This document shows, piece by piece, positions 45,284 through 45,604 of a stretch of 64,000 nucleotides of DNA. The notes beneath the pieces were generated by a model that was given only the letters and a program-made list of their open reading frames with translations, was not told the DNA's origin and ran no database searches. Source of the DNA: an uncultured Pseudomonadota bacterium (GTDB lineage Bacteria > Desulfobacterota > Desulfobulbia > Desulfobulbales > Desulfocapsaceae); the NCBI GenBank assembly GCA_963776835.1, contig CAVZOB010000011.1:46651-110650 (forward strand). Direction: 5' to 3'. Within the stretch, counting starts at the first letter, position 1; every line of letters starts with the position of its first letter. Made by a program: the position numbers and the translations under genes.

Positions 45284-45604
45284 ATGATAAAAATCCATTT
45301 TTTTATGAATGAACCAAATGGCGGACCTTGAAAGCATTTCAACAAGATGCTGTCCAGGTTGGACGGTAAGTACAACATTGGCATCAAGATAACTTCCCGG
45401 CCCAAGGCTGAGTATATCACTGATGAGTATTTCGCCCTTGATCTCCCTGTTGCTCCAGCGATTATGGTTGACGATGAAATCGTCACCGAAGGCAAAGATA
45501 TTGATGACCATACAGTTGAAGCCGCTATCTGTCGACATCTAGGGCTGCCGGAACCCGAATTGAAAAACAGGCACCAAATCCTCGGGAAATTGTTCGGGAA
45601 ATAA
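45284..45604 (+). CDS. Candidate small selenoprotein, thioredoxin-fold-like (106 aa, TGA at codon 16)
   Basis: ATG 45284 has a strong AAGGGG RBS. The reading frame runs MIKIHFFMNEPNGGP-TGA-KHFNKM... into track ORF 45347-45604, whose own ATG lacks an RBS. A beta-strand-then-loop position of U and a later PAIMVDDEIV resemble Thioredoxin_3-type proteins. A hairpin with an AGGTT loop follows. Confidence 0.5.
45350..45366 (+). promoter_or_regulatory. Candidate SECIS hairpin
   Basis: CTGTCC-AGGTT-GGACGG is a 6-bp stem including one G-U pair. It starts 18 nt after TGA 45329-45331. Confidence 0.35.

Follow-up and report, generated by a model that had tools for sequence, protein, structure and literature searches.

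Does a TGA sixteen codons into a short open reading frame (ORF) stand for selenocysteine (Sec), and if so, what might a small protein with a single selenol do in the cell? The question is raised by positions 45284 to 45604 of a stretch of 64,000 nucleotides (nt) from an uncultured bacterium of the Desulfocapsaceae (GCA_963776835.1, contig CAVZOB010000011.1); we call this whole stretch the window, and all coordinates refer to it. An earlier reading of the letters (the original prediction) had placed there a selenoprotein of thioredoxin-like fold, with a putative single-Sec redox or selenium-carrier role, that annotation had missed. Comparison of sequences indicates that the element is almost certainly a member of the TsoC family whose UGA-16 is read as Sec. 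Taken together, TsoC identity, Sec recoding, a thioredoxin-type fold and a tentative carrier role very probably make up the best explanation of the locus.

A tsoC gene with an in-frame TGA

Read with U as C, the product matches the NCBIfam model NF045708 ("NEPxGxxU motif selenoprotein TsoC") (E = 2.6e-40; 136.3 bits, where the curated cut-off is 45), aligning TsoC residues 2 to 87 with positions 1 to 86 of the 87 in the model. The family motif is present in the window as N9-E10-P11-N12-G13-G14-P15-TGA, in which N9, P11, N12 and G13 are invariant in 74 homologues. Direct reading of the frame gives MIKIHFFMNEPNGGP, the TGA at 45329-45331 and KHFNKMLSRLDGKYNIG, and the frame then continues to TAA at 45602-45604; the translation after the TGA runs KHFNKMLSRL..., so that the frame does pass through the TGA into the annotated ORF, as had been claimed. 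The AAGGGG motif proposed as the ribosome-binding site of ATG 45284 is also present (Table 1). A standard ORF list holds only the 85-codon ORF from ATG 45347, which, in agreement with the original prediction, has no purine-rich Shine-Dalgarno (SD) sequence.

TsoA, TsoB and TsoC all appear among the selenoprotein families of a 2026 review, TsoC with a GxxU motif (PMC13188914); the review explains Tso as "three selenoprotein operon" and gives credit to Haft & Tolstoy 2025 (mSystems 10:e0141724, as cited in PMC13188914). Since both the TsoC family and the Tso operon have already been described, the gene reported here is an independent rediscovery of a published and curated family, and its novelty is low. 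The consequence for annotation is that tsoC should be called from 45284 with Sec-16, and not as an 85-residue hypothetical protein; the same applies to TsoA and SelD, which are encoded upstream.

We asked how the TGA and the codons before it are conserved among relatives of this gene. A protein search returned 643 TsoC relatives, most of them 83 to 87 amino acids (aa) long and called from the internal Met, and a scan of species-representative genomes found 356 stretches, from which 80 loci were retrieved and the 74 with a YFxLDLP motif were compared (numbers beginning with L denote such loci and those beginning with P denote proteins). Cultured bacteria that carry the family include Desulfoprunum benzoelyticum DSM 28570 (L058), Desulfacinum infernum DSM 9756 (L022) and Desulforhopalus sp. 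IMCC35007 (L068). Codon 16 is TGA in 73 of the 74 homologous loci and TGT in one; locus L018 represents the Cys form among the genomes. Cys also occupies this position in some full-length metagenomic homologues (MLKVRFFLNEPNGDSCKHF...), for example P0002, P0003 and P0006-P0015, while some database proteins show W there (P0001, P0004 and P0016), as would be expected from a gene caller whose code reads TGA as Trp.

Upstream of the TGA, the 15 codons vary by 0.106, 0.039 and 0.371 at codon positions 1, 2 and 3, respectively, and synonymous codon differences (16341) far outnumber non-synonymous ones (4808). This pattern indicates that the upstream codons are under purifying selection at the protein level. 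Residues F6, F7, N9, P11, N12 and G13 are 100% conserved in the 74 homologues; of 72 distinct sequences, 70 keep the start ATG and 69 have an SD-like motif. Two outcomes had been named as telling against a selenoprotein, homologues that lack the upstream extension and an upstream frame that is not conserved as protein. Neither is observed: the extension carries the six invariant residues, and its codon-position variability is that of a conserved coding sequence.

The locus thus shows the features by which bacterial selenoproteins are recognized, namely, an in-frame TGA, conservation on both sides of it, Cys homologues and a hairpin resembling a Sec insertion sequence (SECIS). A Sec-type selD lies within the same operon, in which two further genes, tsoA and selD itself, need Sec decoding. 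The conservation of the TGA, the Cys forms, the hairpin and the NF045708 match together bear out the proposal that a selenoprotein was missed on account of its early TGA.

A SECIS-like hairpin within the coding sequence

The original prediction had also pointed to a hairpin beginning 18 nt past the TGA. We confirm it as CTGTCC (45350-45355), AGGTT and GGACGG (45361-45366), and find that the stem extends to 9 bp (45348-45356 with 45360-45368) around a GGU loop, from 16 nt after the UGA. The same nucleotides also encode TsoC residues 22 to 28. The 47 nt from the TGA have a minimum free energy of -12.1 kcal/mol (z = -2.07), and 7 of 200 shuffled sequences fold as well; this statistic is modest by itself, and it is the comparative evidence that makes the case for the hairpin. 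When 69 distinct sequences are aligned from the TGA onward, 96 to 100% of them keep the pairs of the core stem (columns 24-27 with 33-36); for the flanking pairs 20-40 and 23-37, the figures are 99% and 87%, respectively. Overall, 79% of cells are paired, compared with 29 to 50% when the 3' partner is slid by 1 to 3 columns.

The window differs from nearly all other sequences in having GUCC...GGAC in place of GCCC...GGGC. This change from C-G to U-A at columns 25/35 preserves the pair while replacing two otherwise conserved residues (P24S and G27D), and the same U-A pair occurs in an independent assembly (L083). Of the 74 genome homologues (73 of them Sec forms), 95% have Gly27, which is encoded in the 3' arm of the stem; this residue is also present in all 7 'W' forms but in 0 of 18 Cys-form proteins. 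In the Cys-form locus L018, the corresponding 26 nt fold at -1.0 kcal/mol versus -11.4 in the window, and the hairpin is lost. Given the compensatory pair, the distribution of Gly27 and the loss of the hairpin in L018, constraint on the RNA can be separated from constraint on the protein. An Rfam scan of 42000-46500 at E ≤ 1 returned no match; the SECIS call is therefore based on the pattern general to bacterial SECIS elements and on comparison.

Predicted fold and active site of TsoC

A Pfam scan of TsoC with U changed to C found no family, and a PDB sequence search with the family profile gave only chance-level matches to ribosomal protein uL6. For structure, we used an AlphaFold model of a natural Cys homologue, P0002 (68% identical to the window protein), built from an alignment of 35 family members (mean predicted local distance difference test score, 82; predicted template modeling score, 0.71). 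Its elements are a strand at residues 2-10, a helix at 14-29, a strand at 32-40, short helices, strands at 59-62 and 65-69, and a helix at 75-86. The model supports a thioredoxin-type β-α-β...β-β-α fold for TsoC, in which residue 16 is predicted to lie in the first turn of helix 1. That Sec should follow a β-strand at the redox position of a thioredoxin fold had been foreseen, and in the model of P0002 residue 16 indeed stands at the start of helix 1, after strand 2-10. The top 50 Foldseek matches in the PDB are mostly thioredoxins, together with glutaredoxin and ArsD, with template modeling (TM) scores of ~0.4 to 0.6, E values of ~5e-3 and probabilities mostly of 0.85 to 1.00.

Alignments with hhalign, none of which is significant, were used only to see which residues correspond. 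With Escherichia coli thioredoxin (E = 0.14), GGPUK lines up with CGPCK; an MTH895-like sequence aligns over residues 46-76 only (E = 0.068), and ArsD aligns over 15 C-terminal residues only (E = 0.12). By this correspondence, Sec16 would take the place of the second active-site Cys of the thioredoxin CGPC motif; CxxU proteins likewise have Sec in place of the second Cys. The resemblance to the Thioredoxin_3 family noted in the original prediction persists as a likeness below threshold, without a significant match: TIGR00412 (Thioredoxin_3/MTH895) gives E = 0.12 and 12.7 bits against a cut-off of 62, so TsoC is not a member. Membership in the ArsD family was rejected as well, the ArsD cysteine site being absent.

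The first position of the GxxU motif is Gly in all 74 homologues, and there is accordingly no CxxC or CxxU pair. The earlier statement that TsoC has only one redox residue, in a GGPU motif, overlooked Cys83, conserved in 73 of 74 homologues next to an Arg84 conserved in all 74. The family is small and tight (199 clusters among 1.84 billion cluster representatives). It includes a divergent side branch in which the motif is CxxS (Cys13, Ser16) and whose members still score 97 to 111 bits on the TsoC model. These sequences (P0122, P0126, P0129 and P0134, the last corresponding to L082:1138-2328) have a basic C-terminal extension of ~40 residues (...RKKWKARNLG...). The CxxS branch indicates that the two positions of a CxxC-type site are used alternately, a pattern that supports a thioredoxin-like active site reduced to one nucleophile.

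Operon context in the window and across loci

The features of the operon are collected in Table 1. A terminator-like site lies at 42115-42146, 5' of tsoR. The start of tsoA overlaps the end of tsoR, and the C-terminal region of TsoA is winged-helix-like (weak HTH_24/MarR matches). By translation, TsoR is without any cysteine and hence cannot be a thiol-based sensor of the kind that ArsR and BigR are; a BigR-like thiol-sensing role was ruled out on this ground. TsoA, with Sec, Cys and the winged-helix-like domain, may be the sensing partner of TsoR. For selD, adding the N-terminal extension that runs through its TGA lifts the TIGR00476 score from 312 to 347 bits. This gene has the motif ...TCGUAAK..., an AGGAGG ribosome-binding site and a strong 8-bp hairpin 12 nt after the TGA, and the standard ORF call for it starts at 43523, 126 nt too late.

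Table 1. Features of the tso operon region in the window
Feature	Position	Strand	Details
tsoR, ArsR/SmtB-type regulator, first operon gene	42470..42829	+	NF045707, 140.5 bits vs cut-off 115
tsoA, LULAxC-motif selenoprotein	42826..43287	+	TGA 43012-43014; NF045695, 206.3 bits vs 170 (U read as C)
selD (selenophosphate synthetase), Sec type	43397..44449	+	TGA 43448-43450; hairpin 43463-43484
TauE/SafE-family membrane permease gene, directly 5' of tsoC	44436..45239	+	PF01925 E = 8.4e-39; start codon uncertain
Shine-Dalgarno-like AAGGGG	45272..45277	+	6 nt 5' of ATG 45284
tsoC coding sequence	45284..45604	+	106 codons, Sec at codon 16, TAA 45602-45604
In-frame TGA read as Sec (U16 of NEPNGGPU)	45329..45331	+	TGA in 73/74 loci, TGT in 1/74; Cys forms align
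SECIS-like hairpin	45348..45368	+	Arms 45348-45355/45361-45368; core arms 45351-45355/45361-45365; loop AGGUU, or GGU if A-U closes
NapH-like polyferredoxin gene remnant	45604..45820	+	Frameshifted, truncated; tblastn with L001 protein

We clustered the ORFs within 6 kb of tsoC over the 74 loci. The canonical order is TsoR-TsoA-TsoB-TsoC, and TsoB is found in 61 of the 74, with tsoC directly 3' of it. A C-terminal fragment of TsoB scores 747 bits on NF045694 and comprises rhodanese, DsbD-like membrane and thioredoxin-like parts. The window instead has the order TsoR-TsoA-SelD(Sec)-TauE-TsoC, and tblastn found no TsoB in any of its 64 kb. The order SelD-TauE-TsoC recurs in L007, L012 and L083, L016 reads TsoR-TsoA-TsoC-DsrE-like-SelD-TauE, and L001 reads TauE-TsoC-NapH-like. 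In all, selD belongs to the tso operon in 5 of ~76 loci examined (the window, L007, L012, L016 and L083), whereas TauE neighbors TsoC in the window and six other loci (L001, L007, L012, L016, L081 and L083); the Cys-form TsoC P0002 also comes after a TauE-domain protein. Paired DsrE-family proteins, a class-I methyltransferase (in 15 loci) and a NapH-like polyferredoxin membrane protein also recur near TsoC.

Fusions extend this picture. L060 has TsoC joined to a VTT/DedA membrane domain in one protein, and in L004 tsoC adjoins a separate VTT gene; in the metagenomic protein P0134, of the CxxS branch, TsoC is fused behind a class-I S-adenosylmethionine-dependent methyltransferase domain. A second TsoC paralogue, often beside a DsrE-family gene, lies a few kilobases from the first in L083 (405-611), L002, L013, L017, L037, L058, L064 and L074. 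The order in L083 is TsoC2-DsrE-SelD-TauE-TsoC-NapH-like-ArsR-like. The SelD/TauE/NapH-like neighborhood, the membrane-domain and methyltransferase fusions, the CxxS side branch, and the SECIS-driven signature of Gly27 in Sec forms but never in Cys forms are modestly new, and some of them may already be in Haft & Tolstoy 2025.

Directly 3' of tsoC, the window holds what is left of a NapH-like gene. In tblastn, residues 5-48 of the NapH-like protein of L001 align in frame 2 and residues 40-76 in frame 1, with nothing beyond, so that the remnant amounts to ~76 codons, with a frameshift near 45712-45742 and homology ending near 45820. Intact NapH-like genes of 355 to 360 aa lie 3' of tsoC in close relatives (L001, L083 and L084). 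Beyond the remnant are two tyrosine recombinase (phage integrase family) genes at 46294-48292 (-), whose position beside the broken gene suggests that a mobile element disrupted the 3' end of the operon. A search of a plasmid collection found no near match to the operon.

Several other genes in the window appear split or truncated (38839-40954, 13037-14482 and 29592-32152, all on the minus strand): a GlgX/isoamylase-like gene is broken into two ORFs that overlap, a TreY-like ORF matches only the first ~420 of the ~1000 positions of its model, and a multicopper oxidase gene is in two pieces. Whether they are real pseudogenes or stem from indel errors in the assembly bears on how the frameshift 3' of tsoC is to be judged. 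Elsewhere, 4 kb from the selenium operon, an ORF of 777 residues at 49509-51842 (-) has a cysteine-synthase-like, pyridoxal phosphate-dependent domain (PALP) over residues 7-285 and, fused to it, a complete class-I cysteinyl-tRNA synthetase with its catalytic, DALR and anticodon-binding domains, in which the HIGH motif region looks altered (CGPTAYEPPNLSLCRRF).

A possible carrier or relay role for Sec16

What might TsoC do? Translation almost certainly starts at ATG 45284, and the SelB/tRNA-Sec machinery, guided by the hairpin 16 to 37 nt 3' of the UGA, decodes UGA-16 as Sec to give a small cytoplasmic thioredoxin-fold protein with a single selenol in the first turn of helix 1. We tentatively favor a mechanism in which a chalcogen or metalloid atom (Se or S) is bound covalently to Sec16 and carried or relayed by it, or in which Sec16 serves in Se-S/Se-Se exchange; we regard this as possible rather than probable. 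Sec16 would work at the cytoplasmic face of a membrane permease, and the cargo would then be handed to cytoplasmic enzymes. We favor a carrier because TsoC is nearly always beside or fused to a membrane permease-like protein (the DsbD-like domain of TsoB, TauE, or VTT/DedA) and because SelD, DsrE-like proteins, rhodanese and methyltransferases, which are encoded nearby, are enzymes that accept one S or Se atom or a metalloid. In the window, where TsoC would have the TauE-family permease and the Sec-type SelD as its partners, this company makes the handling of selenium en route to selenophosphate synthesis the most likely form of such a role. Members of the TauE family are annotated as exporters of sulfite, of which selenite is the selenium analogue. 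A literature search for TauE linked to selenophosphate synthetase found nothing.

A narrower version of the carrier role, which we consider unlikely, is that TsoC serves these bacteria as a protein dedicated to delivering selenium to selenophosphate synthetase. Selenium would enter via the TauE-type permease, be reduced with electrons from the NapH-like membrane ferredoxin, be held as an Se-Se adduct on Sec16 and then be passed to the Sec-type SelD. If this were true, the TauE-TsoC-NapH-like-SelD block would be a self-contained module for selenium assimilation, and the canonical operon with TsoB would be the counterpart that faces the periplasm. A carrier linked to selD and having a selenol at its active site would bear on how selenide is safely delivered to bacterial SelD. 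More generally, the company of SelD, TauE and NapH-like proteins, the VTT/DedA and methyltransferase fusions and the CxxS branch offer leads to the role of TsoC.

Several points weigh against the account given here. With respect to recoding, no tRNA-Sec was found in the 64-kb window, and ten large annotated ORFs in it are not selA or selB; a literature search, with Haft & Tolstoy 2025 itself outside its coverage, returned no report of selenium incorporation or activity for any TsoC. The core of the hairpin stem is nearly invariant and lies within coding sequence, so that covariation is weak, and constraints on RNA and protein are told apart only through the comparison with Cys forms and one compensatory event. 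With respect to the fold, the structural evidence comes from a 68%-identical Cys homologue and not from the window protein, and the link to thioredoxins is a weak one, with Foldseek E values of only ~5e-3, no Pfam match and E = 0.14 in the hhalign comparison with E. coli thioredoxin. With respect to function, adjacency to SelD is rare and lineage-restricted (5 loci), the common partner TsoB is absent here, and the broken NapH-like gene 3' of tsoC is possible damage to the module.

Alternative explanations

Instead of carrying an atom, TsoC could be a dedicated, cytoplasmic thioredoxin-like electron donor that reduces the DsbD-type membrane domain of TsoB through an Se-S intermediate, the reducing equivalents powering the periplasmic Sec-rhodanese and thioredoxin-like domain of TsoB. 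There is precedent in the reduction of DsbD by TrxA, and the position of tsoC directly 3' of TsoB in most loci is what such a partnership would lead one to expect. TsoB scores 268 bits on the DsbD model NF001419, below the 330-bit cut-off, and ends in a thioredoxin-like domain with a WCxPC motif; TsoC for its part has a predicted thioredoxin fold in which the reactive residue occupies the CxxC site, and the conserved Cys83 could serve as a resolving thiol. However, the active site offers one reactive position (GxxU or CxxS) and not a dithiol for two-electron transfer, and Cys83, which to judge from thioredoxin falls late in the C-terminal helix, is probably distant from residue 16. Furthermore, the window keeps TsoC and its SECIS intact with no TsoB in 64 kb, and an electron donor leaves unexplained the TauE, VTT/DedA, SelD, DsrE-like and methyltransferase neighbors and fusions. 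Electron donation fits the common operon but not the window, and we hold it to be rather doubtful.

A metallochaperone like ArsD is quite unlikely. Here a soft metal or metalloid, for example As(III), Sb, Te, Hg or Cd, would be bound by Sec16, with Cys83 or His18 perhaps contributing, and be handed to a transporter or methyltransferase, with expression under the ArsR/SmtB-type TsoR. ArsD structures are among the best Foldseek matches (3kgk_B, TM 0.54/0.57; 3mwh), TsoR belongs to the ArsR/SmtB family of metalloregulators, methyltransferases with weak ArsM-like similarity occur near tsoC in 15 loci and are fused to it in one case, and there is the weak match to the MTH895/ArsE thioredoxin-like family. 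Yet the Cys12/Cys13/Cys18 site of ArsD is missing, as TsoC has no cysteines in the N-terminal loop beyond the Sec position, and the alignment with ArsD covers only the C-terminal helix (E = 0.12). TsoR lacks cysteine, unlike the As(III)-sensing ArsR, the operon has no genes for the efflux of arsenic or other metals, and the recurrent accessory genes (rhodanese, DsrE-like, SelD and TauE) suggest sulfur or selenium over metal.

It is barely credible that TsoC is not a selenoprotein at all, with the TGA a true stop, a nonsense mutation or Trp and the real gene the 85-codon ORF from 45347: although public gene callers mostly start the homologues at the internal Met, some translate the TGA as W and no Rfam SECIS family matches, the TGA is kept in 73 of 74 species-level genomes together with the ATG, the SD-like motif and 15 constrained upstream codons, natural homologues have Cys and never Trp at codon 16, the curated NF045708 model begins at residue 2 of the long form, the hairpin is specific to TGA forms, and Sec decoding is required by two other genes of the operon. 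A true stop, Trp or a pseudogene lesion was ruled out by the conservation of the TGA, the selection upstream of it and the TGA-specific hairpin.

Comparison with known systems

The window protein resembles canonical TsoC (NF045708) in its full-length match at three times the cut-off, in the same NEPxGxxU motif with TGA and in its length class. It differs in having S and D at the highly conserved P24 and G27, the compensatory change in the SECIS stem. The operon begins, like the canonical Tso operon, with TsoR and then TsoA, and both fall within the Thermodesulfobacteriota; in contrast to the "three selenoprotein operon," it has no TsoB, whose place is occupied by the Sec-type selD and TauE.

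With thioredoxin and the Rdx/SelW-type selenoproteins, TsoC shares a predicted β-α-β-β-β-α core and a reactive residue in the first turn of helix 1, and its invariant P58 precedes strand 3, the place of the cis-Pro loop of thioredoxin. Unlike them, it has Gly for the first Cys and thus no intramolecular dithiol or selenolthiol pair at the site. It has no significant sequence similarity to the thioredoxin-like Pfam families, and N-E-P-N-G and His18 are specific to the TsoC family.

ArsD (PDB 3kgk and 3mwh) is also a small cytoplasmic protein of thioredoxin fold encoded in an operon with an ArsR-family regulator, and it is among the best structural matches. TsoC is without the Cys12/Cys13/Cys18 site and without an ArsA/ArsB partner, and the similarity in sequence is not significant. 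ArsD carries its bound atom to a membrane transport system, a point of likeness to the carrier role proposed here for TsoC.

Comparative genomics has linked YedE/YedF, and rhodanese or NifS-type proteins, to selD as candidates for selenium delivery. The locus described here differs from YedE/YedF-type candidates in that TauE is not YedE, the predicted thioredoxin fold is not a TusA/SirA fold, and the link between TsoC and SelD is confined to a few Desulfobulbaceae-type loci. What the two have in common is a permease and a small cytoplasmic carrier-like protein beside selD, the carrier often having Sec or Cys at its reactive site.

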